Shown piece after piece: positions 16,992 to 40,252 of a DNA stretch of 64,000 bases. Each line of letters starts with the position of its first letter. Positions within the stretch are counted from its first letter, which is position 1. Below the pieces are notes generated by a model. That model made no database searches. It saw only the letters and a program-made list of their open reading frames with translations, and was not told where the DNA came from. Source of the stretch: Candidatus Pelethenecus sp. Lineage in GTDB: Bacteria > Bacillota_I > Bacilli_A > Acholeplasmatales > Anaeroplasmataceae. The stretch is from contig JBGVFV010000117.1 of assembly GCA_045121295.1 (NCBI GenBank), forward strand, positions 5,349 through 69,348. The letters run 5' to 3'. The position numbers were made by a program, and so were the translations under genes.

Positions 16992-17096
16992 GTCAGTCTT
17001 GTCAGTCTTCTTTAAAAGCATTACATTAAGGCAGTTTTACCAACTTTAAGATTGCCAAAATTAAGGCTGTCATCTTTAAAATTTGGTGTCAGTCTT
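16992..17096. repeat. three copies of GTCAGTCTT (two in tandem, one 87 nt away) in the intergenic region
   Basis: Copies at 16992..17000, 17001..17009 and 17088..17096, plus TTAAGGCAGT/TTAAGGCTGT at 17026 and 17061. They lie between the stop of the 501-aa recombinase gene and the start of the XRE gene. Confidence 0.6.
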
Positions 17097-20185: not shown

Positions 20186-20188
20186 AGC

Positions 20189-20347
20189 TTATTCCTCCTT
20201 GTTTTCTTGAATATTATTTTTAGATTCCTCTTCCTTTTTTTCCCTTAATAGGAATAAAGATAAGAGACTATCTAATGCATTTTCTGTTTTAAGATTAGTT
20301 TCCCTAATAACTTTTACAGTTACACCTGAAACTGTCATTTCAAACAT
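20189..20347 (-). CDS. small ORF (52 aa) directly upstream of the recombinase pair
   Basis: Below the track threshold. My translation is MFEMTVSGVTVKVIRETNLKTENALDSLLSLFLLREKKEEESKNNIQENKEE. RBS GGGAGGGAG lies upstream, and the stop is 3 nt before the recombinase ATG. Confidence 0.45.
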   Translation of the reverse strand: MFEMTVSGVTVKVIRETNLKTENALDSLLSLFLLREKKEEESKNNIQENKEE

Positions 20348-20448: not shown

Positions 20449-20988
20449 CTAGCTTAGATATTTTTTAACATAAAGCGATATTACTTCGTCATATGCATCA
20501 TCTGGATAATGCCAATCAATATCAAATAATATTTTTAGCATTTTCTTTTGATAACCATAAGCATCTAATTCTAGCATTGTACATAATTGAACAGATGGGT
20601 CCATGTTGTTATAATCGATGGATAATTCTTCTTTCCAATCTAGCATTAATGGTTCTTTAGTATTGTTAGTAAAAACACAATGTAATTGATATTTGTGTCG
20701 CAATTCATGAATCGCACATTTAAACATTTCTAAATCATCCATTATAAACTTATCTGAAATAGCTATATAATCTTCTTGAATATAATATCTTGAATCATCT
20801 GGTATATTTTCAACTACAACTGGGATTGGATCTATTCCTAAATCTTTACATATTTTTAATGTTAATGGGAATAGCTTACCTAGCTGTTCTTCATGATTCC
20901 ATTTTTCTTCTCCAAAGTATTGAATGAATTTTTCTTTTAATTCTTTATCACTCATATTCTTTAGACTTTCAATATACTTTGTTAACAT
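20449..20988 (-). CDS. putative HExxH metallopeptidase-like protein (ImmA/IrrE-like?)
   Basis: 179 aa with motif AIHELRHKYQLH and downstream LELDAYGY. It is divergent from an XRE gene. Confidence 0.4.
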   Translation of the reverse strand: MLTKYIESLKNMSDKELKEKFIQYFGEEKWNHEEQLGKLFPLTLKICKDLGIDPIPVVVENIPDDSRYYIQEDYIAISDKFIMDDLEMFKCAIHELRHKYQLHCVFTNNTKEPLMLDWKEELSIDYNNMDPSVQLCTMLELDAYGYQKKMLKILFDIDWHYPDDAYDEVISLYVKKYLS

Positions 20989-21003
20989 ATTATTCCTCCT
21001 TAC

Positions 21004-21050
21004 GCCACTATAGTAGCACCTACGAGTATATTATATACTACTAAAGTGGC
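21004..21050. promoter_or_regulatory. candidate operator palindrome in divergent promoter region
   Basis: GCCACTATAGTAGCA ... TACTACTAAAGTGGC: the arms match at 13 of 15 positions. It lies between the divergent genes 20449..20988 (-) and 21133..21456 (+). Confidence 0.4.
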
Positions 21051-21132
21051 ATTGTCAATATTTTTGTGCAACTTTTGTAGCATTTGTTATTTATTTTAGG
21101 ATGGTTTTGTTTTATAATGGTTTTGGTGATTA

Positions 21133-21456
21133 ATGATGAAGTATATAAGTCCAGAACAAACTGAATTAATTAGAGAAAATATAACTAAAATTATAAGTAA
21201 TAAAATAGATAATAAAGAGATTACACAAGTAGAGCTTGCTAGACTTTGTAATGTATCAAGATCTACTGTGCAAAAATGGTGTAAAGGTACTTGTCCTACA
21301 GCTGATAAGCTTCCAGTAATTTGTAAGGCATTAAATATTAATGAATATGAGCTGTTAGGAACTGAAAATCCTTTTGACTTTAATATGGATGATGTTAAAC
21401 GTATCAACAAAATTAACAATAATCCATCATTAAAAGATGTTGTTGATAAGTATTAA
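21133..21456 (+). CDS. XRE-family HTH regulator (only plus-strand gene)
   Basis: HTH ITQVELARLCNVSRSTVQKWCKG. GGTGA precedes the ATGATG start, and a terminator follows the gene. Preferred over the antisense ORF 21096..21419. Confidence 0.75.
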   Translation: MMKYISPEQTELIRENITKIISNKIDNKEITQVELARLCNVSRSTVQKWCKGTCPTADKLPVICKALNINEYELLGTENPFDFNMDDVKRINKINNNPSLKDVVDKY

Positions 21457-21482: not shown

Positions 21483-23345
21483 TTAGTGGTTGTACCAATG
21501 GTTTCTAAAGAAGTCCATTGAATTTGCCTCATTAATTCCTGCTTCCACTAAAAAGCTAGAAGGCTTTAGTTTTGTCATATTACCATTTATAAAATGGATA
21601 ATTGAACAATATAAATATAGTTGTTGTTTGGCTCGAGTTATTGCGACATATCCGAGTCTTCTTTCTTCTTCTAGTTCCTTACCTTGTTTTTGATAACCTG
21701 GTAGGATACCTTCATTAAATCCTATAACAAATACTACTTCAAACTCCAAGCCTTTAGCTTTATGGATAGTAAGTAATGAAACTTTATTATTAGGATTCTG
21801 TTTTTGATTATCTAAAATCATTTGATTAAATGAATCTTCTAAATCATTACGTTCTAGATTTTGTATCATATCTTTTAATGCCATGATTCTAGAGTATTGT
21901 GGTTTTTGTTTATTAGATTCTTTAAGGTATTTATTGTAATGAAGAACTTCTAATAATTTTAGGAAGAAATCATAATTAGATAAATGTTCCAAATCTTTTT
22001 TTAGTTGCATAAGATCTAAGCCAAGCTTTTGAAATTTAGGATTGTATCTATAATTTGCTGCGTAGGTTATTAAATCTAATGATTGAAGTTTATAATCGTT
22101 CATAAATATCTGGTATTCGTATACTTCAATCTTATAGTTGAAATTATATATATTCATGAATGCTATTTCATTTTTAGGATTAAATAATAATCTATAGGTA
22201 TAAATAATACTTTTAACATCTTTATATTCAAAGAATGGTTTACCGCCAAATAGTTGATAAGGAATATCTAAACCATTTAACTCCTTTTCAATTGTATAAG
22301 ATTGATTATTATTACGATAAAGAATGGCAATATCTGAATACTTAAATCCACTATCTACTAATTCCTTAATCCTATATGCAACTGTTATAGCTTCATCATT
22401 AGTTGATGTAAATTCTTTATATTCAACATTTTTAATAGTTTTAATTTCAGAGAATAATTCCTTCTTTAATCTATTAGGGTTATATTCAATTAATTTATTA
22501 GCATGATTTAAGATATCTTGGTTACATCTATAATTTTGATTTAGAATTATTACTTCATCAGCGAATAATTGAAAATCTTTTAATATAGCAACATCAGATG
22601 ACCTAAAGCTATAAATTAGCTGATCTTCATCTCCTACCATAAATACATTGCCATATCTTTCAGATAGAATATTTATTAGTTCATATTGGATTTGGTTAGT
22701 ATCCTGACATTCATCTATTAATAGATATTTAGTTTGAACTAAATCTTTAAACATTTTATTAGTTTTACAAAGTTTAATGAACATAGGTATCATATCATCA
22801 AAGTCTAGCGAATTAGATGCTAGTAATGCTTCTTGGTATTCATGATATACAGTATTAAACATTAATATATCTTTTTCTTTAATACCTTCTAGTTTAGCAC
22901 CATTTTTAACTCTAGAAATATTCTTAACAAATGGAATATCAGAATAGTCTTCCTCATATTGTGATAGGATATTTTGAATTATTTTCTCTTTATCTGAATC
23001 CATTATTACTTCTGGTCTTTTAGTAAATCCTAAATCAAAGTAGAAATCTTGATATGATATGAAGCTATAACAATAACTATGAAATGTTGATATTATTGGA
23101 GGTTCTATTTCTAGACCTTCTTTTTTTATCATTGCTTCTAATCGCCACTTCATTTCTGATGCAGCTTTATTTGTAAATGTAAATGCACATATATCAAAGG
23201 TTGATGCACCTTGTTTTAGTTGATGCATAATTCTAGTTGTAAGTACTTTTGTTTTGCCGCTTCCTGCTCCTGCCATAACTAATATTTTCTTATTATTACT
23301 TGTTACAGCTCTTAATTGATTTTGATTTAAATCTTTATAAATCAT
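21483..23345 (-). CDS. UvrD/PcrA-family superfamily-1 DNA helicase
   Basis: 620 aa with MAGAGSGKT, LIDECQDTN, VGDEDQLIYSFR, TIHKAKGLEF and YVAITRAK. Confidence 0.9.
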   Translation of the reverse strand: MIYKDLNQNQLRAVTSNNKKILVMAGAGSGKTKVLTTRIMHQLKQGASTFDICAFTFTNKAASEMKWRLEAMIKKEGLEIEPPIISTFHSYCYSFISYQDFYFDLGFTKRPEVIMDSDKEKIIQNILSQYEEDYSDIPFVKNISRVKNGAKLEGIKEKDILMFNTVYHEYQEALLASNSLDFDDMIPMFIKLCKTNKMFKDLVQTKYLLIDECQDTNQIQYELINILSERYGNVFMVGDEDQLIYSFRSSDVAILKDFQLFADEVIILNQNYRCNQDILNHANKLIEYNPNRLKKELFSEIKTIKNVEYKEFTSTNDEAITVAYRIKELVDSGFKYSDIAILYRNNNQSYTIEKELNGLDIPYQLFGGKPFFEYKDVKSIIYTYRLLFNPKNEIAFMNIYNFNYKIEVYEYQIFMNDYKLQSLDLITYAANYRYNPKFQKLGLDLMQLKKDLEHLSNYDFFLKLLEVLHYNKYLKESNKQKPQYSRIMALKDMIQNLERNDLEDSFNQMILDNQKQNPNNKVSLLTIHKAKGLEFEVVFVIGFNEGILPGYQKQGKELEEERRLGYVAITRAKQQLYLYCSIIHFINGNMTKLKPSSFLVEAGINEANSMDFFRNHWYNH

Positions 23346-23580
23346 TAGTCTCTACCAACTTTATTATTTCTTCTAGGATATCCATAGAACAATCATTACT
23401 ATAATTAGTAGCTAATTGATTTAGGATTAATTCAACATTTATATCCTTATTTATATATAAAGGAATCTTTTCTGGATTCATTAATAAATAAGATATTAGG
23501 ATTCTAGGAAGCTCAGGGATTATATTATTTTTATATTTGTATTGGATGAATACATAGGTTTGTCGGTTTTTGTCGTCCAT
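23335..23580 (-). CDS. hypothetical protein
   Basis: 81 aa. It is coupled by overlaps to the rep gene (1 nt) and the helicase gene (11 nt). Confidence 0.45.
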   Translation of the reverse strand: MDDKNRQTYVFIQYKYKNNIIPELPRILISYLLMNPEKIPLYINKDINVELILNQLATNYSNDCSMDILEEIIKLVETNDL

Positions 23581-24704
23581 TAGAATGGTAATTCCCTATC
23601 TTCTACTATTCCTTTAAACTCTTCATGAAGCATTGCATATTCTGCATCATCTAAGGTTTTAAGGTGCCTTTGATCCAAATACATATTTAATCTTTGGAAT
23701 CGTTGTTTAGAAAATTTTAAGCCATCCCTCATAAACTTATATATTTCCATTTCAAATAAATATGGGTCCTTACATACGTCTAGATATTTAACTATTAACC
23801 ATGTTGATATATATGATTCAGCTGCCTTAAGGAATGTTTCAAATGTTTTAGGAATTAAATCCTCTGCCTTTGGTAGAACACCTTTTTCGACATTTTGTAA
23901 GAATGCTTTCCATTTAGAATCTGTAGGTACTCTACTCATATGTCTTCTATCTTCATTGTTATCTTCCTTAATATCTAATACTCTATACAGCTGTTCAAAT
24001 GCGAACTGTTGAAGTTTAAATTCATCCTCATTTTCATGAGCTTGTATTAATGCGAGTGCTACTTTATCAGCTATTAGATTTCTAAATCTTATCTCAAATC
24101 TTACCCAATAGGTTTTATCGCACTTTTTCTTACGATGAATTTGTTCAAGCTTTTTATCATATATTACAAGTTGAATTGGCGAATCATTAGAACCAAATTG
24201 AATTGAATAACCTGTTTCTAATGTTCCATGTGGTATGGGTGGATTTCTAAAGACTGATGTGTAAAATTTCTTTTGAAGAACCTTTTCAACAAGCCAACCC
24301 ATTGTTACATCTTTACCAGTAAAATCATCAATTGCTATATCAATACGCTTGAATCTACAATTAAGTTCTGCCATAAATAGAATGAAATTAGCCCAAGTTT
24401 TATGTGGGTTTCTAGCTTCAAAATCCCTGCATCCTTCACCCTTCATTTCCAAATGACATGTTTTTTGATAACAGTCATTCATTGGTCCATCTAATCTTAG
24501 AATTATAAACTCACCTAGATTAAATTGATAATTATAATTATTTTGTGCGTATTTACACTTTGCCACTTCAAAGTTTTGTATGCTTAAGTACGTTGAAATT
24601 AATTTTACCATCTCATGTACTTTAAACAATACCGATTCTCCAGCATCTACATCAAGTGGAAATGTAGCACTGAAATAGTCTATTTTAATTTCTATCTCGT
24701 TCAT
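23580..24704 (-). CDS. Rep_trans-family rolling-circle replication initiator / relaxase (Tn916 Orf20 / ICEBs1 NicK type)
   Basis: 374 aa with N-terminal IDYFSATFPL. Its size and context (next to a PcrA-like helicase) are typical of Rep_trans proteins. The call rests on motif memory only. Confidence 0.65.
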   Translation of the reverse strand: MNEIEIKIDYFSATFPLDVDAGESVLFKVHEMVKLISTYLSIQNFEVAKCKYAQNNYNYQFNLGEFIILRLDGPMNDCYQKTCHLEMKGEGCRDFEARNPHKTWANFILFMAELNCRFKRIDIAIDDFTGKDVTMGWLVEKVLQKKFYTSVFRNPPIPHGTLETGYSIQFGSNDSPIQLVIYDKKLEQIHRKKKCDKTYWVRFEIRFRNLIADKVALALIQAHENEDEFKLQQFAFEQLYRVLDIKEDNNEDRRHMSRVPTDSKWKAFLQNVEKGVLPKAEDLIPKTFETFLKAAESYISTWLIVKYLDVCKDPYLFEMEIYKFMRDGLKFSKQRFQRLNMYLDQRHLKTLDDAEYAMLHEEFKGIVEDRELPF

Positions 24705-24746
24705 TGAAATACTCCTTCCATAATGTTAATTACCTTTCATAATGTC

Positions 24747-24807
24747 GGTTTATGGAGCGTACAAGGGGCTATTAGTCTAGCCCCTTTGTACTTGCTTACC
24801 ATAAACC
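24747..24807. promoter_or_regulatory. GC-rich nested palindrome; candidate nick site / origin (dso or oriT)
   Basis: GGTTTATGG-agc-GTACAAGGGGCT-attagtct-AGCCCCTTTGTAC-ttgctta-CCATAAACC, 43 nt upstream of the rep start. No T-run follows on the minus strand, so it is not a plain terminator. Confidence 0.5.
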
Positions 24808-24853
24808 TGTGATCATTATATTGATAGGTAAAAAGTACAATAGTTTACTAAAA

Positions 24854-26728
24854 CTAATGATTTATTTTGTTATAGAATCTGGAATTACATTTATCTAATT
24901 CATCCTTCGGTGGTGAAAGTTGTGTAAATGTATCTAGATTCATAAATTCTTCATTTTTCTTTTCTTCATAGCTATAACTTAAGAATGTTGAATCATATAG
25001 TCTTTGATTTTTATATGATAAGTCTCTTATGTTAATACATAATGCCTTTTTAACTCCTTTTGTCGCAGTATCATTTTCATCTTCTTGGCTTATTCTAGTT
25101 ATAAGCTTAAAATACCAGAATTGGTCAAACCAATTACATACTTTAGATAAGCTATTACCTACACTTCTTAATATTGCGTAGATTAAAGTGATATCATTTC
25201 TTTTGTAATTAGATTTACCTTTTCTAAATGATTTTTTCGCTACTGTTCTTCTTCTAGATTCATAACTTTTAATTAAAGATTTTGTTAATTTAAATAATCC
25301 TAAGAATGGTAAATAATACATCATTAATAATAAGGGATATCTTTTCTTACGCTCTTTAATAGTAATGAAGTATTCGGCATTTCCTCTGATTCTAAGTGGA
25401 ACTTGTTGTCTAAGTTGATAGTCAACAAAAATTTTAGCGTGACGCTTTAAGTCATGTGATACTGTTGAAAAGAAAGTCGCCGCGCCATCTTCTCCTACAA
25501 TTTTCTTATCATCATGTGAGTTATATTCCTTATCAAATTCTGATATTGATATAACTATATATTCTTCTAGTGGATATACATCTGCAGGTTTATTTACTCT
25601 CATGTAATCAAAGTTAAATATCTTACTATAAGATTCAAATAATGGTGAGTATATAGCATAATTAGAAATAATAAACGATTTACGGTCATTTAATAAATGA
25701 TAATTATTTATGTATTCTTCATGTTCTGGAAACTCTTCTGGATTTTCTCTAATTTTAGCGAAGTTAATATATTTATGTTTCATTTCATAATCTAATAATT
25801 TTTCTTCTAATTCTTCAATAAATACTTCTTCACAAGCTAACGACATTGACATATTTAATAAAGTCTTACCAGTTCCAGGACATCCATTAATAAAGCATGT
25901 TTGAGTTAGATCATCTCTAACAAACTCTTTTAATCTTTGGTGATTCTTTTTTAATCTATAATTGGCTCTTGATACTGCACTTAAGAATATTGTTATAGTT
26001 ATAATTGGTATCCATATCCATGTAGGTATATATTTAAGTTTTGGATATATAAAAGTAAATACAGCTTGTACAAATTCAAATATTAAAAGATAAGTTTCTA
26101 GGTTAATCATCTTAACAACATAAGTTATTAAAAAGATTAAAAATTCCACTAAGAATCTATACATAATCCCTTTTCCAAATAGGAATAAGAATAGAGCTAA
26201 AGCTATCTTTCTTCTATGGATGTAAGCTTGATTTAATAACCATCTAATACCTCTTATTACATAATTCTTAATAGTTGTGATAAAGTTACCTATAGTAACA
26301 TAGAGTCCTGCAAGCGGACTTGTTTTAATAGATATTTGAGTTCCAGACATTACTTCATGAAAGAAAATATATGAAATTAAAATACCGTTTAAACCATAGT
26401 TACAAAAATAGATTATAAAGTTAAATCCCAAGTCTAATGCATCAGTTAAGAATTCTAACATGATTTCTTCAAATGGTTTATCTATTGTAGTTTCTATTGA
26501 TTCGATAAAACCATTAACTGCTTCTTCAATTTCTTTTATTGTTTCATCATAAATTACTGTTGATTTATCATTATAAACTTCAAAGATATTTTTAAGATTA
26601 GATATATCAGCTATCTCACAAAATCTATTAGTTGTTTCAATAAATGAATTTAAGTTTAATACTATTAGGAATAGTGTTAAACCTATCCCTAATAATATTA
26701 AAGTTATTTTAATTATCTTCTTAGCCAT
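24854..26728 (-). CDS. polytopic membrane P-loop NTPase (Zot/pI-like assembly ATPase or TcpA/FtsK-like coupling protein)
   Basis: 624 aa. The N-terminal ~260 aa hold about 6 hydrophobic spans. These are followed by Walker A FINGCPGTGKTLL, Walker-B-like YIVISISEFD, and another hydrophobic span PLLLMMYYLPFLGLF. Confidence 0.55.
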   Translation of the reverse strand: MAKKIIKITLILLGIGLTLFLIVLNLNSFIETTNRFCEIADISNLKNIFEVYNDKSTVIYDETIKEIEEAVNGFIESIETTIDKPFEEIMLEFLTDALDLGFNFIIYFCNYGLNGILISYIFFHEVMSGTQISIKTSPLAGLYVTIGNFITTIKNYVIRGIRWLLNQAYIHRRKIALALFLFLFGKGIMYRFLVEFLIFLITYVVKMINLETYLLIFEFVQAVFTFIYPKLKYIPTWIWIPIITITIFLSAVSRANYRLKKNHQRLKEFVRDDLTQTCFINGCPGTGKTLLNMSMSLACEEVFIEELEEKLLDYEMKHKYINFAKIRENPEEFPEHEEYINNYHLLNDRKSFIISNYAIYSPLFESYSKIFNFDYMRVNKPADVYPLEEYIVISISEFDKEYNSHDDKKIVGEDGAATFFSTVSHDLKRHAKIFVDYQLRQQVPLRIRGNAEYFITIKERKKRYPLLLMMYYLPFLGLFKLTKSLIKSYESRRRTVAKKSFRKGKSNYKRNDITLIYAILRSVGNSLSKVCNWFDQFWYFKLITRISQEDENDTATKGVKKALCINIRDLSYKNQRLYDSTFLSYSYEEKKNEEFMNLDTFTQLSPPKDELDKCNSRFYNKINH

Positions 26729-27660
26729 ACAATAATCGCTTTAAAGACTAAATATAATAAATAGATTAGTCCTATTCCGACTATAGAGCCAGTTACTATT
26801 AATATAGTTTTTATTTTAGAACTATCATTTTTTACATTTGTGTCATCTGAAGGATCTTGTGGTTGCTGATTTGGTTGTTGATTGTCGTTATTATTGTTGT
26901 TACTTTGATTATCATTATTGTTATTATCTTCTCCAGTTTGTGGAGGGTTATTGTTTTCGTTACCATCACCAGTTCCATCATCTGGTATGATTGGATCATC
27001 TAATGATGGGTCATCAGTTGGTTGATTAGTATTTGAGCCTGAACCTCCCACATCGTTGGCATTATCATCTGGGTTTTCATCTGGTGTATAATTTACATTT
27101 TCGATTATTGCATAATACATTAATTGATGTGTTCCAGCTGCATTTTCAAACGAAGTCATTACAGGATAGATGTTTTGTGTTGGTTGATCAAATACTGAAT
27201 AAGATGGTTCTTTAATACAAACAAATCTATCTCTCCAACATTCTAATAAACAGTCATTAGTTGTTTTTCCTTCTTTTAGGTCTTTTACATATATTGATTG
27301 TCTATAGTAGTTTTGAGTCATTAAAGCGGAAACATAAGTACCAGATGCATCTTCTATAATATATATAGATACTTGTCTACTATAAGTAGAACCATCTGGA
27401 TAAGTACCAGTGTATTGATATCTATTATTGCCTAGTGATTCATAATTAAATGTGTAATTTGAAGTACATGGTTGTCCATTTTGATATAGCATAAATGGTT
27501 TAATTAAATCAAAGCCTTCATCTATATCCATATCAGATGAAAAGGTAATATATGATGCAATGTCATAGCTTGATGCAGCATATGCATTTGTTATTGATAA
27601 TAAAAATAATGAGATAACAGCTAATAATAATGATGATAATTTAAGTATTTTAGATTTCAT
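26713..27660 (-). CDS. secreted protein with low-complexity linker and C-terminal membrane anchor
   Basis: Signal peptide ...SITNAYA/AS, an N/D/P/Q/G-rich linker (GSGSNTNQPTDDPSLDDPIIPDDGTGDGNENNNPP...) and a C-terminal TM plus basic tail ...FKAIIVWLRR. Confidence 0.65.
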   Translation of the reverse strand: MKSKILKLSSLLLAVISLFLLSITNAYAASSYDIASYITFSSDMDIDEGFDLIKPFMLYQNGQPCTSNYTFNYESLGNNRYQYTGTYPDGSTYSRQVSIYIIEDASGTYVSALMTQNYYRQSIYVKDLKEGKTTNDCLLECWRDRFVCIKEPSYSVFDQPTQNIYPVMTSFENAAGTHQLMYYAIIENVNYTPDENPDDNANDVGGSGSNTNQPTDDPSLDDPIIPDDGTGDGNENNNPPQTGEDNNNNDNQSNNNNNDNQQPNQQPQDPSDDTNVKNDSSKIKTILIVTGSIVGIGLIYLLYLVFKAIIVWLRR

Positions 27661-27731
27661 AATTATATTCTCCTTATCATTTATTGTTTTGAAATCTAGG
27701 AGAAGTTATCTCCTAGACTTCTTTTAATTTA

Positions 27732-30700
27732 TTAACGTCTTAACCATTTAAAGAACTTGCTGATAATTGCCCAAATACCCCAAATTAATAGGATACCTGT
27801 AATTGTTCCTAAGGTGATAGTTGCAGCTTTAAATGCTTTATTTTCTTCAAATCTTACTTTGAAGTCATCAGCAAAGTCATTAAATTTATCTGCTACTGTT
27901 TCACCAACTGGTTCTACGCCATCTACTAATACTTCATTAGTTCTAACTAAATGTTCAATATTAGCAACTTCAACGTTATATTCATATTCATAATATGAGC
28001 CATTTCCTACATGATAGATTCCATCTACATCAGCTGTTGTTGTTTTAGTGAAATCAATTGTAGTTTCATTTTCGAATGGTTTCATTAAGCCTCTAAATCT
28101 TGGTACTACATCTAACATTACATCGTTTAATGTGTATTCTGGATTAGTGATTTGCTTATCCATTAATAGATAACCATAGTCAAATTGGAAGGCTCTTGCG
28201 AAAATGTATGAATAATCAGATTCAATTAATTCTAATTCGATTGAAGTCTTTAATAGGATTGTTTCTCCTGATTTAAATACTGCATCCACCCAGTTAGAAT
28301 CTTCTTTTGTTGTATAATCAATTTCATATTCTTCAGTGTATAATTTTCCATCTTTTAATAAGATGTTTTTACCTAATGCACGTAATACTTCTTCTTTAGT
28401 AAATTCTTTAGTATACATAACTTTAGTTAAAGCTACGAAACCTTGTTTTACTTCAGTTTGGTCTACTGCTTGATTAGATGAAGAGAATCCTACATTAACA
28501 CCTGAGTTGATAATATAAACAGTACCTTGATCATATGTTGCTTCATATGTCTTAGTTTCGTTAACTGTCTTATTAGTCATTTCAAATGATTCAGTATTTA
28601 AGTTTTGATTAGTTAAGAATGCCTTAATAGCTTCTTCGATTTGTTCATTTGTATAATCTTTATTTGCATTAAATACAACAGCAATATCGCCATCACCAAA
28701 CATTACAAATCCCATATCATAATCAAAATTCATAATCTTTACACTGATATCTTTATCATAAACATAAGTATTTTCGATTCTTGTCCAAGCATTAAATGTA
28801 TAGTCTTCTTTGTTAGTTCTACCTGATGATGTTCCAATTGCGAAACCTGGGACTTCATAAGGTTCACCATCAACTGTACATAAGATATCTCTAATAGTAG
28901 ACATTAATCTTGAACCATCTACTGTTTCTGGTGTATAGATATTTGTGATTTCTTTAAAAACTACATTTGATTGTTCTTGGTTAGTGTTGTCGTTAGTTTC
29001 ATCACCATTTTCTGTGTCACCAGTGTCTGGTAATTCAGGTGTTTCTACTAATTCAACATCAGATACTACTACTTTAGCTTTACCACTAGATAGTGTAGCA
29101 GTATAAGCATTACCTGCTAAGTAACCATAACTTGCTGTATCTAATAACGGAGATTGATCATATTCAACTTGAGATTCCATTAAATGATTTTCCATTAATG
29201 GAGCCATTAAAGACGCTAATGACTTAATTTGTTCAGTTGGATTAGTAATAATATATACATCATTACCATCTAAGATATAACCAATGTTACCTTCTACATT
29301 CATTACTTTAACAGTGATATCTTTAGTGATTACTCTATTATCAGGTAATGTGATAGCAATTGGTAATGAAGCATTATATCCTACTTGATAGTTAGTTGTA
29401 TCAGCTATAATAGTTGATTCACCATCTGACATGTAACCATGATTTAATGTAACTAAAAATTCAAATCCTTCTAATACTTTAGTAGCATCCATATTATTAG
29501 GAACTACAATTGTATCGAAGTTTCTTGCAGTATAAACTGGGTTGTATTGTGTATAATCCATTAAAGGAATTTCATAATAGGCTAACATTTCATCAATGAC
29601 AGTTTCTGCTGGAACTTCTAACCCCATAGTTTGAAGTAATAATTTAGCTTGTTCCATTTCTTCAATTGAATAATTATAGTCTTTAACACCATAAATATTT
29701 CCATCTTCTGATAAGTAAGCGTTAGTTGGTTTAACATATGAATTTAAATCATAATATTCTACTAATGGAGCTAAATCTTCACGACTTGTAATAGCAGTGA
29801 ATTTATCTTTAAACGATTCTGGAATATAAATTTTTTCTAATGCTGCACCTTCATATAATGTATCTTCTGTAATTTGGAAATTAGAGATACTCTTAACAAA
29901 TCTTAATGCTTTAACTCCTGAGAAATTTGAAATATTAAATGTATCAGCTGCAGAGTAAGGTCTGATGATTAATTCATCACATACTACTCTTTCAAAATGA
30001 TAATCTTTATTTTGTGGCATATAGATTTTTCTAAATTCATGTCCTTCTGGAATCATAGTTCCAGAAGATAATTTAGTTGCATCTAAATCTACTACATTTT
30101 CAGAAATTGAGTTCAAAGAATAAGTTAAGGAACCTGATGATGTAATATCAGTATTAGTGTTTACACTATAGTAACCTAGAGATTCAAATACTTCACCATT
30201 AGGACTAAAATCACTAAGAACATAGAATATTTCTTCAGGGTATTTCCATGTTTCACACAATTCAGTCTTTAAAGTTACACCATTACGATTCGTTAGATTC
30301 AAATTATCAAAAGTTGATGGATTATTAAATGAATTATAAAAATCATTAATATAAATATGTTCTACATTTGTACTAGTAATATATGTTGTAAATGCATCAG
30401 AATCTAAATCAAAGAATGCATTTAAATAAGATGAATAAACATATATATTCTTAAATGAAGATGGTAAGCCTGTATTTAAATTACATGCACCACCTAAATA
30501 AAGGTTAATACCTGATGGTAATTGAGAAATGATATTTTGTACAAAGCCTAAATTATTACCTGTTATGATAACATCTTCAAGGTTAGTATATTTAGTCCAA
30601 TCAATTGAACTTGCATAAGTTATCTTTCCTTTATTACCCATATAATTTAGAACTAATACTTTTTCTTTAGATGGATCAGCTACTTCACTTACATCAAAGT

Positions 30701-30938
30701 ATCCACCTGAAGATACTGTATAATGTAATCCGCCATAATCAAACTGTCCCATATCTACAATTTCTTGTGGAATCATACGATAAAAGTTATTAACTCTATA
30801 TGTTTGTGTTGTTTCCTCTGCTACTACTGAAATACCATCATTAGGTAATTCAGCTGCAGATGCACTAGGTGAGGAAATTACTAGTGCACCTGATAATACT
30901 GTAACGGCAGCCAATGCCGATAAAATCTTCTTTTTCAT
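27732..30938 (-). CDS. large surface protein, BspA-type leucine-rich repeats + three ~190-aa repeats + C-terminal membrane anchor
   Basis: 1068 aa with signal peptide ...SSPSASA/AE and LRR_5-like segments (KALRFVKSISNFQITEDTLYEGAALEKIYIPESFK). Repeated modules: DITVKVMNVEGNIGYILDG / DISVKIMNFDYDMGFVMFG / SIELELIESDYSYIF. The tail is ...IWGIWAIISKFFKWLRR. Confidence 0.65.
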   Translation of the reverse strand: MKKKILSALAAVTVLSGALVISSPSASAAELPNDGISVVAEETTQTYRVNNFYRMIPQEIVDMGQFDYGGLHYTVSSGGYFDVSEVADPSKEKVLVLNYMGNKGKITYASSIDWTKYTNLEDVIITGNNLGFVQNIISQLPSGINLYLGGACNLNTGLPSSFKNIYVYSSYLNAFFDLDSDAFTTYITSTNVEHIYINDFYNSFNNPSTFDNLNLTNRNGVTLKTELCETWKYPEEIFYVLSDFSPNGEVFESLGYYSVNTNTDITSSGSLTYSLNSISENVVDLDATKLSSGTMIPEGHEFRKIYMPQNKDYHFERVVCDELIIRPYSAADTFNISNFSGVKALRFVKSISNFQITEDTLYEGAALEKIYIPESFKDKFTAITSREDLAPLVEYYDLNSYVKPTNAYLSEDGNIYGVKDYNYSIEEMEQAKLLLQTMGLEVPAETVIDEMLAYYEIPLMDYTQYNPVYTARNFDTIVVPNNMDATKVLEGFEFLVTLNHGYMSDGESTIIADTTNYQVGYNASLPIAITLPDNRVITKDITVKVMNVEGNIGYILDGNDVYIITNPTEQIKSLASLMAPLMENHLMESQVEYDQSPLLDTASYGYLAGNAYTATLSSGKAKVVVSDVELVETPELPDTGDTENGDETNDNTNQEQSNVVFKEITNIYTPETVDGSRLMSTIRDILCTVDGEPYEVPGFAIGTSSGRTNKEDYTFNAWTRIENTYVYDKDISVKIMNFDYDMGFVMFGDGDIAVVFNANKDYTNEQIEEAIKAFLTNQNLNTESFEMTNKTVNETKTYEATYDQGTVYIINSGVNVGFSSSNQAVDQTEVKQGFVALTKVMYTKEFTKEEVLRALGKNILLKDGKLYTEEYEIDYTTKEDSNWVDAVFKSGETILLKTSIELELIESDYSYIFARAFQFDYGYLLMDKQITNPEYTLNDVMLDVVPRFRGLMKPFENETTIDFTKTTTADVDGIYHVGNGSYYEYEYNVEVANIEHLVRTNEVLVDGVEPVGETVADKFNDFADDFKVRFEENKAFKAATITLGTITGILLIWGIWAIISKFFKWLRR

Positions 30939-30990
30939 TTTTTATATATCCTCCATGTTAATATTTATTTAAAAGAAGAGAAAAGAATAA

Positions 30991-32322
30991 TTACTTATTC
31001 TCATGTTCATTACTCTTTCCTATAAAGTTTTTAATACATCGAATAGCTTTTAGGATTGGTATTAAAAGTACTAAAGCTAATATTGAACATCCAACTGCAA
31101 TAATAGCTACTTTATATTTATCCCAATTAGCTTTAACGTCATTGAATAGATCGTCAATGGCGTTTTTGAATTGGTAGTAAGATGAATCAGTGTTAAGTAT
31201 TAGATCTTGGTCTAATATAAACAATGTATCACCTTCGATAGTATCCATCTTAATTGGTACATCGAATGTTTCACCATCTACTACATAATTCATTCTTAGT
31301 ATTTGAAACTGTGATACTCTTCGGTAATCTGCTTCGTAATATTCCTTACCTTCAAATATGTTCCATGCATCGTCATCATAATTTAAGTGAAGCTTATATT
31401 TATAATTGATGCTTGAATTTTTAGTTGATTGGTAAGACCCTTCAGAAAATCCTTGGAATTTGTAAAGGCCGAAGATTCCTCCACTAACTCTTTCGGTTGT
31501 AAGGGATTTAGTAATTTGGTGCTCATCGTCTGGTAAGAAGAACTGGTAGAATGGTTTATCGTCATTTAAAATCTTGTATGCCACATCTACACGATAAATT
31601 TTATCTATTTTAATACTAGTATTAAAATAGGCGAAGTGACCGTATCCACCATAAGCTAATAAATCAAAGTAACTTTGAACTTCACAAGCTTCTATAATTT
31701 CATAACCATGGGTACATAATTGCATAGAATTTTTGCCATCTAATTTAGGAATTAGACCTAAATCAAATGTAATGCTTTCTGTACATTGACCAATGGCTTG
31801 GTTAGTACCTTCATAGCCATATTTAAAGTTAGTGAAGTTATATGTCCTTTTAAGGGGTAAACCAAAGTTTTGTCCATCTTTGAAGCCAGCTATTGGCGTC
31901 ATATATAGAGTTAAATCAAAATTTGGATATGTTTTATATTCTGTAGATAGCCAGTTACCATTTAGGTTTTGCATATCAGAAACTGTTGAATATAAGTTAT
32001 AGGTTTTCCCTGATTCAACAATTTGTAATAACGTATTATTAGTTTTTGTGTAGTAAGGGCTTGTCCAACATAGGTATAAATACCCGTCTTTAGAACTGCC
32101 GCCTACAAAACTATCCCAATAAAGACCTAAATATTTATTTGGTTCTAGATACTTAATATCTATATCTACGTTATTTAAAATATAGTCCCAATTTTCTTGT
32201 TTTGTCTCTTCTGATATCTTAGGTTCTATATTCGATGCTGCTGATACTGGAGTTGTAAAACTACATAGGAACAGCATAGATAAACACAAGACGATGGCTA
32301 CTAGAATCTTTTTAATTTTCAT
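30991..32322 (-). CDS. secreted protein with C-terminal membrane anchor
   Basis: 443 aa with signal peptide ...FTTPVSA/AS and a C-terminal TM VAIIAVGCSILALVLLIPIL followed by a basic tail. Confidence 0.6.
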   Translation of the reverse strand: MKIKKILVAIVLCLSMLFLCSFTTPVSAASNIEPKISEETKQENWDYILNNVDIDIKYLEPNKYLGLYWDSFVGGSSKDGYLYLCWTSPYYTKTNNTLLQIVESGKTYNLYSTVSDMQNLNGNWLSTEYKTYPNFDLTLYMTPIAGFKDGQNFGLPLKRTYNFTNFKYGYEGTNQAIGQCTESITFDLGLIPKLDGKNSMQLCTHGYEIIEACEVQSYFDLLAYGGYGHFAYFNTSIKIDKIYRVDVAYKILNDDKPFYQFFLPDDEHQITKSLTTERVSGGIFGLYKFQGFSEGSYQSTKNSSINYKYKLHLNYDDDAWNIFEGKEYYEADYRRVSQFQILRMNYVVDGETFDVPIKMDTIEGDTLFILDQDLILNTDSSYYQFKNAIDDLFNDVKANWDKYKVAIIAVGCSILALVLLIPILKAIRCIKNFIGKSNEHENK

Positions 32323-32325
32323 AGC

Positions 32326-32499
32326 CTACTCCTTTTCTACAGCTTTCTTAGTTATAAATATTCCAAGAATTGCTGTGCCTATTGCTAGAATAAACTTCCA
32401 GCATTTTGAAGTTATAAATTTTACTATTTGCCATAAGATTTGTAATACACTTCCTAAGGTTGCAAATATGTTTTTAATGAATGCCCAGATTAAGCTCAT
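32326..32499 (-). CDS. small hydrophobic protein (57 aa), candidate coat-like/membrane protein
   Basis: Below the track threshold. My translation is MSLIWAFIKNIFATLGSVLQILWQIVKFITSKCWKFILAIGTAILGIFITKKAVEKE. RBS AGGGTGAG lies upstream, and the stop is 3 nt before the next ATG. Confidence 0.5.
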   Translation of the reverse strand: MSLIWAFIKNIFATLGSVLQILWQIVKFITSKCWKFILAIGTAILGIFITKKAVEKE

Positions 32500-32533
32500 A
32501 CACTCACCCTTTCATTAGATGAGAGGAGAGTTT

Positions 32534-33016
32534 TTACTCCCCTACTTCATCTTCAGCATTTTCTTCTTCATCCTCAACTGGATTATCTACTTTAGTAAAT
32601 TCCGCTTGAGGCTTAAATGTAGACCAAATCAATCTCGATTGAATGTCAGATAGGTAAAAGGCGCGTGGATGAGGGTTGTCCTCTGAGCCAAAGTTAATAA
32701 TAATAGCATCATATTCAGTACCGTCTTTTCTTACCGCATGAATACACTCTGCTGGCATATTTTCAATTGTTAATTTAATTGAACCATTTGAGCTATTAGC
32801 TGCTTGATCCAATTCATCTAATAATCCATAATTCGAAGCAATTAATTGGAAGGTTTCATACTTCTTAATTTCATATTTAGGCTTGATGATTAAGGCACCA
32901 GCAATTGAGCCTTTCTTATAAACCATATCTTTTTTTCTTAATAATGCACGCATTGTGACTTTTGGGTCTACCCCATAATTTGTAATATTAAATACTACAT
33001 CCATTTTAGTTTTCAT
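32534..33016 (-). CDS. hypothetical protein with strongly acidic C-terminal tail (possible ssDNA-binding role)
   Basis: 160 aa with RBS GGAGG and tail VDNPVEDEEENAEDEVGE. It overlaps the upstream gene by 4 nt. Confidence 0.45.
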   Translation of the reverse strand: MKTKMDVVFNITNYGVDPKVTMRALLRKKDMVYKKGSIAGALIIKPKYEIKKYETFQLIASNYGLLDELDQAANSSNGSIKLTIENMPAECIHAVRKDGTEYDAIIINFGSEDNPHPRAFYLSDIQSRLIWSTFKPQAEFTKVDNPVEDEEENAEDEVGE

Positions 33017-33420
33017 AATGTTTCCTCCGAGTTATTAAATATATTTTTATAATGTAGATAATGTTCTACTGTTTCACCAAAATCCGTTGTTTCAAAAGCC
33101 TCTAAATACAAATATGTAAGTTTTGCTGATGTAAACGGATTATGTGAAATAAATCTTAATAGCGTATCTAAAATAATTCCTGTATCTCTAAGTGTCATTA
33201 AATCATCTTTTTCTTCTTGAATTTTTGATACAACGTCACCAAGTAATTCAGATATATATACTGCCGGCTCATATTCCTTAGAAGCATTTGTTAATACAGT
33301 AAAGATTAAAGACTCCGCTTCTAGTGATGTTATCTTTTTATCAAGATTTTTCATCACAACCTCAGGCTTATATTTACCTGTTTTTTGTAATTCTTGAATA
33401 ATTACTTTAATGTGCTTCAT
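33013..33420 (-). CDS. hypothetical protein
   Basis: 135 aa, predicted helical, with RBS AGGAGG. Confidence 0.5.
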   Translation of the reverse strand: MKHIKVIIQELQKTGKYKPEVVMKNLDKKITSLEAESLIFTVLTNASKEYEPAVYISELLGDVVSKIQEEKDDLMTLRDTGIILDTLLRFISHNPFTSAKLTYLYLEAFETTDFGETVEHYLHYKNIFNNSEETL

Positions 33421-33678
33421 ATTGAAGACCTCCTAATGTTTTAAAGGAATTATGGAGAACCTACTTTGTACTGCTGCGCTTCAAGTTACTTCATCAATCA
33501 TCTATATATAGTGGGGAGCTAGTCACCATACAGTTCAGCTCTTCATATATCCTAATTAAATTTTCATAAGACCACCTCGCTCATGTCGTGGTTCATTGGA
33601 CTCCTTATGAACCATGAGTAAATAGTAAGTTGTACACCTTACACTTTACTGGACAGATAGAGGTGCTCTTGGGGAGCA
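33421..33678 (-). other. GC-enriched structured intergenic element A (ncRNA or ssDNA structure)
   Basis: 258 nt with no ORF. Several stem-loops are present, e.g. TGGTTCAT-10 nt-ATGAACCA. It shares the exact 19-mer TGTCCAGTAAAGTGTAAGG (minus strand) with element B. Confidence 0.45.
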
Positions 33679-34116
33679 TTATTTAAATTTTTCTGTTAAA
33701 AATTGAATTCTTTTAACAGCTAGATCGTAATCTCTACTTACAGTTTTATGGTCAATTAATAGTTCCCTACTTAATTGACGAAATGATACATCGTTCATGC
33801 AATGTTGAATAAATATATAAGCTTGTCGTTCTGGGATTAGTTTTAAAGCATCATATATAGAATTAAGTTTTTCTCTTCTTATTAATCTTTCAATTGGATG
33901 TTCGAATTCAGCAGCAGGTTCGAATGTACCTTCTACACCATCCTCATCAACACAATGATCATAAGATGTAATTCGTTTGTTAAATCTTTCTTCTGATTTG
34001 ATAAATGCTTCTGCGTCACGGTTTAATTCCTTAACCATATCAACTTCAGCTTGGTTGTCACATTCAACATAAATGAATGTTTTTTTGTTAATAATGTATT
34101 TAGTTCTTAATTTCAT
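33679..34116 (-). CDS. sigma-70 region-4-like / HTH regulator (Tn916 Orf7-like)
   Basis: PERQAYIFIQHCMNDVSFRQLSRELLIDHKTVSRDYDLAVKRIQ. The ATG at 34116 has AGGAG 8 nt upstream; the upstream ATG at 34149 has no RBS. Confidence 0.6.
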   Translation of the reverse strand: MKLRTKYIINKKTFIYVECDNQAEVDMVKELNRDAEAFIKSEERFNKRITSYDHCVDEDGVEGTFEPAAEFEHPIERLIRREKLNSIYDALKLIPERQAYIFIQHCMNDVSFRQLSRELLIDHKTVSRDYDLAVKRIQFLTEKFK

Positions 34117-34356
34117 AAGAAAACTCCTATAGATTTCACATGAATCCATAGGAGCAATACAAACTTAATCCATAGGTAGAAAGGGGGTTAAAGCACTACA
34201 GCCTTAAGCTTATATTCCAGCCCTTCTCGAGGTTCACCTATGGATTAAATATGAAATTTGCGTATTAGCCTTAGCTCGCCAGCAGATAATATTATGGTGA
34301 TTTTAACGACTTATCTGTCGAAGGGATTTGTGCCCTTACACTTTACTGGACAATTA
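34117..34356 (-). other. GC-enriched structured intergenic element B
   Basis: Perfect 12-bp stem TAATCCATAGGT...ACCTATGGATTA enclosing GC-rich sequence, plus further stems. It carries the same 19-mer as element A. Confidence 0.45.
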
Positions 34357-34533
34357 TCAGCATCTTTGGGGAACTTTTTCTTCAGTTTTTATAAATTGTC
34401 CATTTTCAAAGTGAATTCTAACAATAACTCCATCCTTTTGGATTTCAACAGTTTGTGTCTTAGGATCCGCTTTACATACTAATTTCTTAGAATCTTTTAA
34501 TCTTACTTCTGAAAACATTCGTGTCATCTCCAT
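34357..34533 (-). CDS. possible small ORF (58 aa)
   Basis: My translation is MEMTRMFSEVRLKDSKKLVCKADPKTQTVEIQKDGVIVRIHFENGQFIKTEEKVPQRC. It has no clear RBS and may be leaderless from the promoter at 34545..34572. Confidence 0.3.
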   Translation of the reverse strand: MEMTRMFSEVRLKDSKKLVCKADPKTQTVEIQKDGVIVRIHFENGQFIKTEEKVPQRC

Positions 34534-34845: not shown

Positions 34846-36792
34846 CTAATAATTTTCATAAATTTTTTTTGCTATTTTTTCTTTTGGAAGACGATCTATA
34901 TTAGCAGCCTTTAACATTTCATTCCAATAATGTATGTTTTTATCGGCATGATGTGTTACCAAATCGAAAATAATCCAATTTTCTGCCCTATATAAAATTG
35001 GTAATTTGGCAGCTTTTTGAAGTAAATCAATAGTAAACATAGGCGCCAAATTCAGACCTATAGCCATTGCTAAAATAGATCCAAATTCTGGATTAGCATC
35101 TATATTATTAATATAATCACTTATTGTTTTTCTAGAAATAAGACACTGTTCTTCTAATTGGTCTTGTGTGTAACCTTTTCTATCGATATGTACTTTTAAA
35201 GTTCCACCAAATGTCATAGGTAAGCTTCTCATAATTTCAGCATATTCTTTAGCTACATCAACACTATGCTTAATATCTTCCGCTTTCTCTTTTGCTATTC
35301 TTTCAGCTTCATATAATACACATCTATTTTCATCCTTACTTAAATCGCAAGTAACTTCTTCAAAATTACATCCAGGTGCCTTACATAAATAAATAACTTC
35401 ATCATTATCACTAGGTTCTTGTACTGAACTAGATACATTAAAACATAAGCAATATTTGCTAACATCTTCTAATACATCATTTCGAAGCCATTTTACTTGA
35501 CCTATTCGAATAAATAAATTCGGATTATTTACTACTAAGAATCCATCAACATATATTATTTTATTCATGGCATAAGCACTCATCAAATCTGTGTTATTAC
35601 ACAACAATTCAACTAATGCTTCTTTGCCAATTTGATATGTTTGATTTTTACTCAATATTCCATCTGGAAAAGAATAAGGTTCACACCAATTTCCATCAAT
35701 ACAATTATATACACCTTTCGCTAAATCAAAACCTAATTGAATCGCACGAATTTTAGCAACTGTATGAGAAACCCCATAATGGTCTGCTACTGCTTCGATT
35801 ACCTTTTTTACTATTTCGGCTTTTGAATAATTCTTATATTCTTTTTGAATCAATTCATACTGTTCATAAATATAATCTCTTGCAGTCCGAGTAGGTACTA
35901 AAATATGAGGAGCAATATTATTTGCTTGCCATTCCATCCACTTCTTAGCATTTTTCTTGATGGCTGATTTTTGAATATTACTGTCAAAAACATTACAAGA
36001 AATATATGATTCAAAAACATCAGGATTTAATATTTTTTGAAGTTCAAAATACTTTCTATGTAGCCACCAGTGAACACACTCATGAATTAAAGTGTTGTTA
36101 TACACTCCAGGATATTTAGTAAAAGCTTCATCAGGATTTGCGATAATAGTTCCACATCTAACATCGCAATTAACTACATCGTTATCATCATTATAAATAT
36201 TAAATTTAGTATCACTAAAAATGGTCATCCCATAAATATTTTTTCTTAAAGATGCTTGATAATAATTTATATTCATATTTTTAATAACTTCACTAATATT
36301 AACACCAACTTGATCGAATAACGCATCAGGATAATATTCCATTAGAAATGCTTCTGCATACTTATCTAATTCATCTGAAGATATATAAGGTATAAATTCT
36401 TTAGTTAAAATTTTATCAGTATCTCTTTGTACATCTCCTGGTTGAATATCAATGACAGTTAAATCATGTAAGCCGTCTTTTAAAATACCATCCATTGTAA
36501 ATGTTGCTTTAAAACTTATTAAAGTTGATTTTTTTACATTATTCATTACTACGTATGTATCAATAACGAATCCAACAACAGCATCAAAAGACAAATGTAA
36601 ATCATCTGTATAATAGGCTGTTACTTTTTTTACCTCTGAACCAATATATGAAAACTTACTAAAATCAATTCTTCTAAGAGTATTGATTAATCTATAGATT
36701 TCATTATGATTTTTAGAATACAAAGCAGTGACAAAAACTTCTTTGTGTTCTTTATTTAAATAGTCAACAAAATCTTTATATTTCTTTGTCAC
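34846..36792 (-). CDS. large ImmA/IrrE-type (M78) metallopeptidase fused to a C-terminal XRE-like HTH
   Basis: 648 aa with GTG start and RBS AAGGAG. Motifs: HECVHWWLH ... MEWQANNIAPHILVP. The C-terminal segment is GYTQDQLEEQCLISRKTISDYINN. Confidence 0.6.
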   Translation of the reverse strand: MTKKYKDFVDYLNKEHKEVFVTALYSKNHNEIYRLINTLRRIDFSKFSYIGSEVKKVTAYYTDDLHLSFDAVVGFVIDTYVVMNNVKKSTLISFKATFTMDGILKDGLHDLTVIDIQPGDVQRDTDKILTKEFIPYISSDELDKYAEAFLMEYYPDALFDQVGVNISEVIKNMNINYYQASLRKNIYGMTIFSDTKFNIYNDDNDVVNCDVRCGTIIANPDEAFTKYPGVYNNTLIHECVHWWLHRKYFELQKILNPDVFESYISCNVFDSNIQKSAIKKNAKKWMEWQANNIAPHILVPTRTARDYIYEQYELIQKEYKNYSKAEIVKKVIEAVADHYGVSHTVAKIRAIQLGFDLAKGVYNCIDGNWCEPYSFPDGILSKNQTYQIGKEALVELLCNNTDLMSAYAMNKIIYVDGFLVVNNPNLFIRIGQVKWLRNDVLEDVSKYCLCFNVSSSVQEPSDNDEVIYLCKAPGCNFEEVTCDLSKDENRCVLYEAERIAKEKAEDIKHSVDVAKEYAEIMRSLPMTFGGTLKVHIDRKGYTQDQLEEQCLISRKTISDYINNIDANPEFGSILAMAIGLNLAPMFTIDLLQKAAKLPILYRAENWIIFDLVTHHADKNIHYWNEMLKAANIDRLPKEKIAKKIYENY

Positions 36793-36809
36793 TGCTCTTT
36801 ACTCCTTTT

Positions 36810-40227: not shown

Positions 40228-40252
40228 CTCACTGATAAATTGTGATTTGAAA

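Follow-up and report, generated by a model that had tools for sequence, protein, structure and literature searches.

Characterised filamentous phages of Gram-positive hosts are very few (PMC10061712), and the gut inoviruses of Firmicutes, which have a stand-alone Zot, are largely missing from virus databases (PMC8530359); the only conserved marker of inoviruses is pI (PMC6813254). Here we describe a 13-kb block of genes (positions 21483–34533) in a 64,000-nucleotide stretch of DNA from Candidatus Pelethenecus sp. (Anaeroplasmataceae), the whole of which is called the window below. The block encodes a membrane nucleoside triphosphatase (NTPase) of 624 amino acids (aa) followed by a rolling-circle replication initiator (Rep), and on balance we favour the reading that it serves replication and morphogenesis at the core of a filamentous-phage-like, Tubulavirales-derived element, integrated and non-lytic, in a low-GC gut bacterium of the Bacilli. 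Probably this is a virus-like element, non-lytic and unusually large, that has so far gone unrecognised. The window is part of an 86.8-kb contig, and the host genome (2.12 Mb, 27.9% GC) is in 132 contigs and 95% complete.

Among phage proteins, the Rep is closest to those of Dulem virus 68 (PP511664), Dulem virus 51 (PP511381) and the bajarodino viruses, all circular Inoviridae of 5.7–8.1 kb. In Dulem 68 and 51, as in the block, the ZOT gene precedes the Rep gene (directly so in Dulem 68), and upstream of ZOT lie small transmembrane (TM) proteins, a 512–545-aa protein that has TM segments at both termini, and a pVI-like protein. Propionibacterium phage B5 (Bifilivirus, Paulinoviridae), a filamentous phage of a Gram-positive host, also resembles the block in having a 57-aa coat protein, a 485-aa anchored protein, a small pVI-like TM protein, a Zot-like ATPase and a Rep. 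The order in the window (160-aa protein, 57-aa protein, three anchored proteins, NTPase, hairpin, Rep) is the same plan as that of the Dulem viruses and B5 on a larger scale. The small gut Inoviridae have genomes of 5–8 kb, a stand-alone Zot of about 200 aa and at least three small TM proteins, whereas in the block the Zot-like domain sits inside a 624-aa polytopic membrane protein, has some 55 aa inserted and is extended at the C-terminus, and is accompanied by three large anchored proteins. The helicase, the paired serine recombinases and the defence cargo of the present element are all absent from Dulem 68 and 51 (though Dulem 51 does encode a single recombinase, of 307 aa), and B5 is a 5.8-kb phage with a Rep_1 rather than a Rep_trans initiator and an ATPase that aligns with the NTPase profile at the P-loop only.

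Larger elements also invite comparison. The IME1 elements of Dehalococcoides, integrative elements of 21–28 kb that were once read as mobilisable, encode a pI-like ATPase, and filamentous particles have been linked with them; their authors propose non-lytic filamentous or budding viruses with a double-stranded DNA (dsDNA) genome (bioRxiv 10.64898/2026.09.15.751708). They share with the present element the large size, the integrative habit, the pI-like ATPase, the hydrophobic and signal-peptide proteins and the lack of tailed-phage genes, but have Chloroflexota hosts and hydrophobic genes downstream of the ATPase, and were found by an inovirus pipeline, while the NTPase family escapes standard Zot models. 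Acholeplasma phage L2 (Plasmaviridae) is an integrating, non-lytic phage of a related host group whose ORF3 resembles the NTPase in fold and is preceded at a short distance by signal-peptide envelope proteins; it differs in that it has an envelope, a dsDNA genome and a host that lacks a cell wall, has no annotated Rep_trans and shows no similarity to the NTPase at the profile level. Integrative and conjugative elements of the Tn916/ICESt3/ICEBs1 type and streptococcal integrative and mobilisable elements (PMC6499999, PMC5357655) likewise have a membrane P-loop NTPase directly before a Rep_trans gene and a hairpin site nearby, but their NTPases are of the FtsK/TcpA type, unlike that of the block, and the block has no Pfam matches to VirB4, VirB6 or hydrolase families.

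The original prediction, made from the letters of the window, had suggested that there may be a filamentous-prophage-like module at this place, and the Zot-like NTPase, the inovirus-like Rep and the gene order parallel to that of B5 and the Dulem viruses support this. It had also likened the block to plectroviruses, to which no specific link was found; none emerged through Acholeplasma phage MV-L1, the record of which is sparsely annotated.

The NTPase compared with Zot/pI and FtsK-type ATPases

The NTPase gene occupies 24854–26728 on the minus strand, which carries all the genes of the block, and it encodes a polytopic membrane protein of 624 aa in which a divergent, Zot/pI-like ATPase domain lies at about residues 272–530, as judged by hhalign, AlphaFold2 and Foldseek. 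That this is a membrane P-loop NTPase had been proposed beforehand and is confirmed by the P-loop GCPGTGKT (residues 282–289), which lies C-terminal to some 270 residues of helices. In the AlphaFold2 model (predicted local distance difference test, pLDDT, 90.4) about ten long helices at residues 1–273, with four to five hydrophobic segments among them, are followed by a P-loop α/β domain into which helices are inserted, and then by a C-terminal helical hairpin with a β-sheet. The confidence of the model depends on the alignment: with 27 close sequences the pLDDT was below 50 in the ATPase core and a fold search from that model was meaningless, and the high-confidence model was obtained because relatives of 20–35% identity were added to the shallow alignment, which was thereby widened to 51 sequences. 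Over 200 proteins, each about 620 aa long, belong to the family, and in none of them does the ATPase carry a Pfam domain; exhaustive searching for homologues gave 108 representatives at 50% clustering. Searches of Pfam, PHROGs and NCBIfam with the NTPase yielded P-loop noise alone and no family match, and a hidden Markov model search of PDB sequences did likewise.

The relationship appears when profiles are compared. The NTPase profile was aligned by hhalign with a Zot profile made from 35 PF05707 proteins drawn from metagenomes and from genomes of the host's class, giving a probability of 96% (P 4.4e-9), and a Zot profile of just three sequences gave the same result. The greedy alignment covers 181 columns and runs from Walker A through an NF/NY strand, Walker B and the FFS..H/RH motif to the Q...R motifs; Walker A reads GxPGtGKT in the NTPase against GTPGSGKS in Zot and Walker B reads ISEFDKE against IDEAQ, the FFS..H/RH motif is more fully FFS..SH/HRH, and the insertion of about 55 residues follows the P-loop helix. 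By contrast, the host FtsK (0.4%) and a host FtsK-like protein (0.1%) aligned with the NTPase profile at the P-loop only, as did a 26-sequence FtsK-like profile (4.1%), and no FtsK_SpoIIIE, VirD4 or TraG Pfam match was found among 27 members of the NTPase family. The FtsK-like protein that served as a control is a second FtsK paralogue of the host (571 aa, contig C119, 11491–13206), encoded apart from the 745-aa FtsK and kept in metagenome-assembled genomes (MAGs) of Anaeroplasmataceae; an FtsK_4TM domain is present in its relatives.

Fold searches with the high-confidence model point in the same direction. Against viral models the top match in Foldseek was an unnamed protein (E 1.2e-6), several entries named ‘Zonular occludens toxin [Inoviridae sp.]’ stood among the top matches at E values of 9e-5 to 4e-3, ORF3 of Acholeplasma phage L2 (37.2 kDa) matched at 1.7e-4, and FtsK-like proteins reached 0.03 at best. 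Against the PDB the leading matches were the Zot N-domain 2r2a (probability 1.0, template modelling score 0.49 on the target), STIV2 B204, HerA and T7 gp4, none of them below an E value of 1e-3, and FtsK, TrwB and VirD4 were absent from the top 50. Profile comparison with L2 ORF3 and ORF1 gave alignments confined to the P-loop (7% in hhalign for ORF3).

The comparison that the original prediction had proposed for the 624-aa protein, Zot/pI against FtsK/TcpA/VirD4, therefore falls on the side of Zot, with 96% for the Zot profile against 4% for the FtsK-like one and with Zot folds ranking first. Because the Zot profile and fold matches agree and the FtsK controls are negative, we conclude from profiles and a predicted model that the NTPase is not a coupling protein but a Zot/pI-type ATPase, highly divergent and set in a polytopic membrane protein; it is a very distant relative of the filamentous-phage assembly motor, not a conjugation protein.

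A Zot family of the stand-alone kind, with proteins of about 200–260 aa, was represented by 728 proteins at E values up to 1e-5. Nearly all of the 120 of these that were listed are on contigs shorter than about 15 kb, most of them 1–9 kb, from gut-type metagenomes, and the proteins probably belong to small inoviruses that infect Bacilli or Mollicutes-like hosts. It is the Zot family of the small circular gut Inoviridae and of the stand-alone-Zot gut inoviruses of Firmicutes (PMC8530359) that matches the NTPase profile.

Putative replication and morphogenesis genes of the block

All the open reading frames (ORFs) claimed for the block are present on the minus strand, in the order 58, 156, 135, 160, 57, 443, 1068, 315, 624, 374, 81 and 620 aa. 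Clear family matches are limited to Rep_trans with Rol_Rep_N, UvrD and, weakly, sigma-70 region 4, and the rest are orphans with respect to Pfam, PHROG and NCBIfam. The order itself recurs in metagenome contigs and genomes, where a protein of 155–160 aa is followed by one of 57–61 aa, two to three anchored proteins, the NTPase, Rep_trans, a protein of about 83 aa and UvrD; even where the NTPase homologue is only 27–32% identical, it still lies 3′ of two to three signal-peptide proteins, usually C-terminally anchored, and 5′ of Rep_trans.

The 374-aa initiator (23580–24704) has a Rol_Rep_N domain and, as predicted, a Rep_trans domain (Pfam, E 2e-22), belongs to PHROG 453 (replication initiation protein), and is 28% identical to the Reps of Dulem 68 and Dulem 51 (E 1e-16 and 2e-10 respectively). 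Between the NTPase and rep genes lies the hairpin AAGGGGCTA-GACTAA-TAGCCCCTT (24763–24786, minus strand), which had been noticed as a GC-rich palindrome and the pairing of which is now backed by covariation: it is kept in seven relatives with 92% of cells paired and compensatory changes in four of the nine pairs, a score reached by none of 500 shuffles. The loop CTAnACTAATAG is conserved among the relatives, and we take it to resemble a pT181-type nick region. The hairpin is accordingly named here as a candidate, a putative double-strand origin and nick site. Downstream of rep, an 81-aa acidic protein (23335–23580) precedes the 620-aa UvrD/PcrA-like helicase (21483–23345), for which the earlier assignment as UvrD-like is confirmed by Pfam (UvrD-helicase, E 1e-62). 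An ORF of 82–88 aa is found between rep and helicase in the related loci L001, L005–L008, L020 and L037, with similarity in sequence in L001, L020 and L037, and the helicase is also syntenic in relatives; it is probably the partner of Rep in rolling-circle replication. Inside the helicase gene (21601–21698, minus strand) there is a sub-threshold match to RF03531 (‘Clostridioides difficile sRNA included into helicase gene’; 48.6 bits against a gathering threshold of 65.2, E 1.2e-5), which may be only conserved coding sequence of a related mobile-element helicase.

Upstream of the NTPase, the first gene of the conserved core encodes a 160-aa protein (32534–33016) with an acidic C-terminal tail, VEDEEENAEDEVGE, just as had been described. 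Homologues of 142–160 aa with acidic tails are at the same position in L001, L002, L005, L020, L037 and L038; comparison of the family with PDB sequences and Pfam gave no signal, and a putative single-stranded DNA (ssDNA)-binding or packaging protein is our candidate assignment. The next gene encodes a basic hydrophobic protein of 57 aa (32326–32499; isoelectric point 9.9) with two hydrophobic segments, an amphipathic N-terminal helix, a TM helix and a KK-rich end. Its homologues (50–61 aa) lie directly 3′ of the gene for the 160-aa protein in relatives and have the motif SK.WKFIL in common, making the protein a candidate for a major coat or virion membrane protein.

The three proteins that follow are secreted and C-terminally anchored, and the features claimed for them were all found. 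Each has a hydrophobic N-terminal segment with an AxA-type site (VSA/AS, ASA/AE and AYA/AS in the 443-, 1068- and 315-aa proteins, respectively) and one C-terminal TM segment, both the 1068- and the 315-aa protein end in WLRR, and the 315-aa protein has a low-complexity linker rich in G, N, P, D and Q. The 443-aa protein (30991–32322) is the most conserved structural candidate, with homologues of 32–93% identity in relatives, although comparisons of the family with PDB sequences, Pfam and the Dulem 512-aa protein gave no match. Among the 201 genomes of the order, 19 have it, nearly always next to the NTPase: about 16 of the 21 full-length matches are on the contig that carries the NTPase and the remainder are on fragmented contigs. 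Because the family is almost confined to the neighbourhood of the NTPase, it does not behave like a set of chromosomal orthologues unrelated to mobile elements; orthologues of that kind had been named beforehand as something that would speak against a phage-like module. The 1068-aa protein (27732–30938) has a variable ectodomain (84% identity in L001, 23–29% and mostly over partial length in more distant relatives) and is a candidate adsorption protein. The stop codon of the 315-aa gene (26713–27660) overlaps the start of the NTPase gene by 16 nt. The C-terminal anchors of the 315- and 1068-aa proteins are 35% identical over 48 aa and their ectodomains are unrelated; this homology of the anchors alone suggests that the WLRR anchor may be a shared docking module to which different heads can be fitted.

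At the head of the block are three smaller genes. The 58-aa ORF (34357–34533) has no family match. It is followed by a 156-aa sigma-70 region-4-like regulator (33679–34149), for which the claim of a ‘sigma/HTH’ protein gains matches to Sigma70_r4_2 (Pfam, E 1.2e-3) and to the NCBIfam sigma70-ECF model (E 1.3e-6, under the cut-off), both of them sub-threshold. A 160-aa Sigma70_r4 protein stands at the same position in L002 and L047, and the 156-aa protein is a probable activator of the morphogenesis operon. The 135-aa acidic protein (33013–33420) appears to be the product of a variable accessory gene: it has no Pfam, PHROG or NCBIfam match, no homologue was detected in any relative compared, and in L001 its position is taken by a WapI-domain protein. 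Rfam gave no match on the proposed promoter or on the two regions that had been described as structured elements.

Distribution of the family and extent of the element

Of 201 genomes of the host's order, 35 have the NTPase family, with many decayed fragments, as do 21 of 399 genomes sampled across the class Bacilli, in several families; a canonical Zot turned up in only 3 of 300 genomes sampled from the class. The family thus behaves like a mobile element, with patchy spread, several diverged copies per genome and decayed fragments. What follows the NTPase gene can also vary. In L002 (11958–18706) it is an agr-like set (LytTR regulator, histidine kinase and AgrB) with a C39 bacteriocin ATP-binding cassette exporter, and in L047 (11461–13963) it is a 497-aa protein of unknown type on the other strand and a tyrosine integrase.

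In the window, host genes resume to the left of about 10.4 kb and to the right of about 52.9 kb, and the island extends roughly from 10.8 to 52.5 kb. Next to the helicase is a divergent pair (20449–21456) consisting of an XRE regulator (plus strand, 21133–21456) and a 179-aa protein (minus strand), which has counterparts at the same place in a second copy of the element in the same genome and would probably form a lysogeny and induction switch. Beyond it, on the minus strand at 17095–20347, a 52-aa ORF precedes a pair of large serine recombinases (533 and 501 aa) that overlap each other and have Resolvase and Recombinase domains, and that by their domains and position would constitute an integration and excision module at the end of the element. 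The other arm (34846–47314, minus strand) carries defence cargo recognised by Pfam, namely an M78 helix-turn-helix (HTH) protein and a type I restriction-modification system. A third large serine recombinase (611 aa) lies at 12225–16983 with an AAA_25 ATPase, an XRE protein, two more HTH proteins and two unknown proteins; this cluster stands between host genes and the recombinase pair and is perhaps a small element of its own, integrated in tandem.

The second copy, diverged and full, is on contig C86 (L020 5749–17279; L021 540–3630). Its NTPase is 67% identical to that in the window, it ends with its own serine recombinase pair of the same kind, directly after which host genes follow, and at the position equivalent to the defence arm its cargo consists of AIPR, two C5 cytosine methylases and a Ser/Thr kinase. 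Contig C118 (L059 354–6827) has a third NTPase homologue, which is very distant (713 aa, profile E 3e-53). Three signal-peptide proteins precede it, of which one is anchored at the C-terminus, and the contig, 10.7 kb long, has no detectable homologue of Rep_trans.

Proposed cycle, alternative readings and implications

Set upon the homology and synteny described above, which are observed, a cycle can be proposed in which each functional step is inferred. Relief of the XRE switch would allow the paired serine recombinases to excise a circle, and Rep_trans would nick the conserved loop of the hairpin at 24763–24786; Rep and the element's own UvrD/PcrA-like helicase would then produce ssDNA circles by rolling-circle replication, following the pT181 and inovirus paradigms. 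The sigma-like protein would switch the operon on, the 57-aa protein and the three signal-peptide, C-terminally anchored proteins would be inserted in the membrane, the 160-aa acidic-tailed protein may coat the DNA first, and the polytopic Zot/pI-like NTPase would assemble the membrane-inserted proteins around the DNA and extrude a particle without lysis. The defence genes on the other arm would be cargo that pays the host.

Several observations weigh against a filamentous-phage-like element. With genes for proteins of up to 1068 aa and a large overall size, the element is unlike the compact genomes that define inoviruses. Measured against the criteria of Roux et al. 2019 (PMC6813254), a pI-like ATPase by remote homology is present, as is a rolling-circle Rep with an origin beside morphogenesis genes, but recognition by a Zot model and a compact genome with short genes are lacking: PF05707 (Zot) gave no match in the NTPase and 26 relatives at E values up to 10, a direct PF05707 scan of the host genome does not land on the NTPase, and single inovirus pI proteins, M13 pI and B5 Orf8, align with it at the P-loop only. 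Where the same criteria look for short structural proteins (30–90 aa) with one TM domain, the block has a single conserved small hydrophobic protein, that of 57 aa, at the place where one would be expected; it has two hydrophobic segments, inoviruses usually have at least three such proteins, and the gaps of the block are too small for further small ORFs. The adjacent Rep and helicase are missing in some relatives and some relatives use a tyrosine integrase. No NTPase relatives were found in IMG/VR, phage records or plasmid records, the motif pattern used in these collection scans having been validated by control matches, and no circular contigs were seen, five whole contigs showing no terminal overlap. 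Contigs of 14.2 kb were considered as circular episomes and rejected; they look like assembly breaks because a longer contig of the same element continues, where they end, into a type I specificity-type gene.

A family not found in the virus collections searched, and a Rep beside an NTPase, can also be read in terms of conjugation. On this reading the locus would be a conjugative or mobilisable element independent of a type IV secretion system, the NTPase acting as a coupling protein that pumps Rep-nicked ssDNA and the anchored proteins, large and variable as adhesins might be, serving in mating. In Tn916/ICEBs1-type elements the coupling-protein gene precedes the relaxase gene, which is the order of NTPase and Rep_trans here, and the Rep aligns with most of the NCBIfam MobT model (E 3e-19). 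The MobT match scores only 69 bits against a cut-off of 600, however, and the N-terminus of the Rep is a Rol_Rep_N domain as in plasmid initiators; the NTPase profile fits Zot and not FtsK-type proteins, and none of the 27 members of its family that were searched has an FtsK_SpoIIIE, VirD4 or TraG match in Pfam. The absence of VirB4-like, VirB6-like and cell-wall hydrolase proteins remarked in the original prediction is reproduced in that none of these Pfam families matched the proteins of the block, and a search of the 95%-complete genome for AAA_10 (VirB4-type) gave no match that could stand for an ATPase of the host to be hijacked. We know of no conjugation system with a Zot-like ATPase, and consider a conjugative element unlikely.

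The same anchored proteins might instead be the spikes of a pleomorphic enveloped element (plasmavirus- or pleolipovirus-like) or of one borne by vesicles, with the 57-aa protein as an internal membrane protein and the NTPase loading buds. The fold match to L2 ORF3 (E 1.7e-4), the signal-peptide envelope proteins shortly before that gene in L2, and the origin of named homologues of window genes in MAGs of Acholeplasmatales and Anaeroplasmataceae (others being labelled Bacilli) are all in keeping with this, and one small membrane protein with large spikes suits an envelope better than a filament. Budding would be hindered by a cell wall, though, and the host is probably walled because its genome encodes transpeptidase-type penicillin-binding proteins; beyond the P-loop there is no profile signal to L2 ORF3 or ORF1, and both the Rep itself and the Zot–Rep adjacency point to Inoviridae, so that we regard an enveloped or vesicle-borne element as quite unlikely. 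Finally, the block could be a domesticated or defective remnant that no longer moves DNA and is kept for surface display or as part of a defence island, as decayed fragments are common in related genomes and the adjacent Rep and helicase are missing from some otherwise intact modules. Against this, all genes of the present copy are intact and tightly packed, with translational overlap, the origin hairpin is conserved with covariation, and there are a second full copy, a third distant NTPase locus and a patchy distribution; a mere remnant seems to us very unlikely. The filamentous-phage-like element thus remains the reading that we favour.

If this reading is taken further, the elements may represent an unrecognised, family-level lineage of large non-lytic viruses whose hosts are gut Bacilli, both Anaeroplasmataceae-like and of other families. 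We put this forward tentatively, as possible rather than probable. Such viruses would have an assembly ATPase fused to a polytopic membrane domain that perhaps replaces pVI/pXI-type functions, three large, exchangeable anchored proteins on the virion tip or envelope and their own PcrA-like helicase, and would serve as a vehicle for anti-phage defence.

The NTPase family is common, yet it is missed by every standard phage, conjugation and Pfam model, and the NTPase profile obtained here would allow such elements to be annotated where at present there are runs of hypothetical proteins. If particles are made, Tubulavirales-like viruses would gain a wider range of size and host and a new assembly-motor architecture, and restriction-modification and abortive-infection genes would have a non-lytic route among gut Bacilli.

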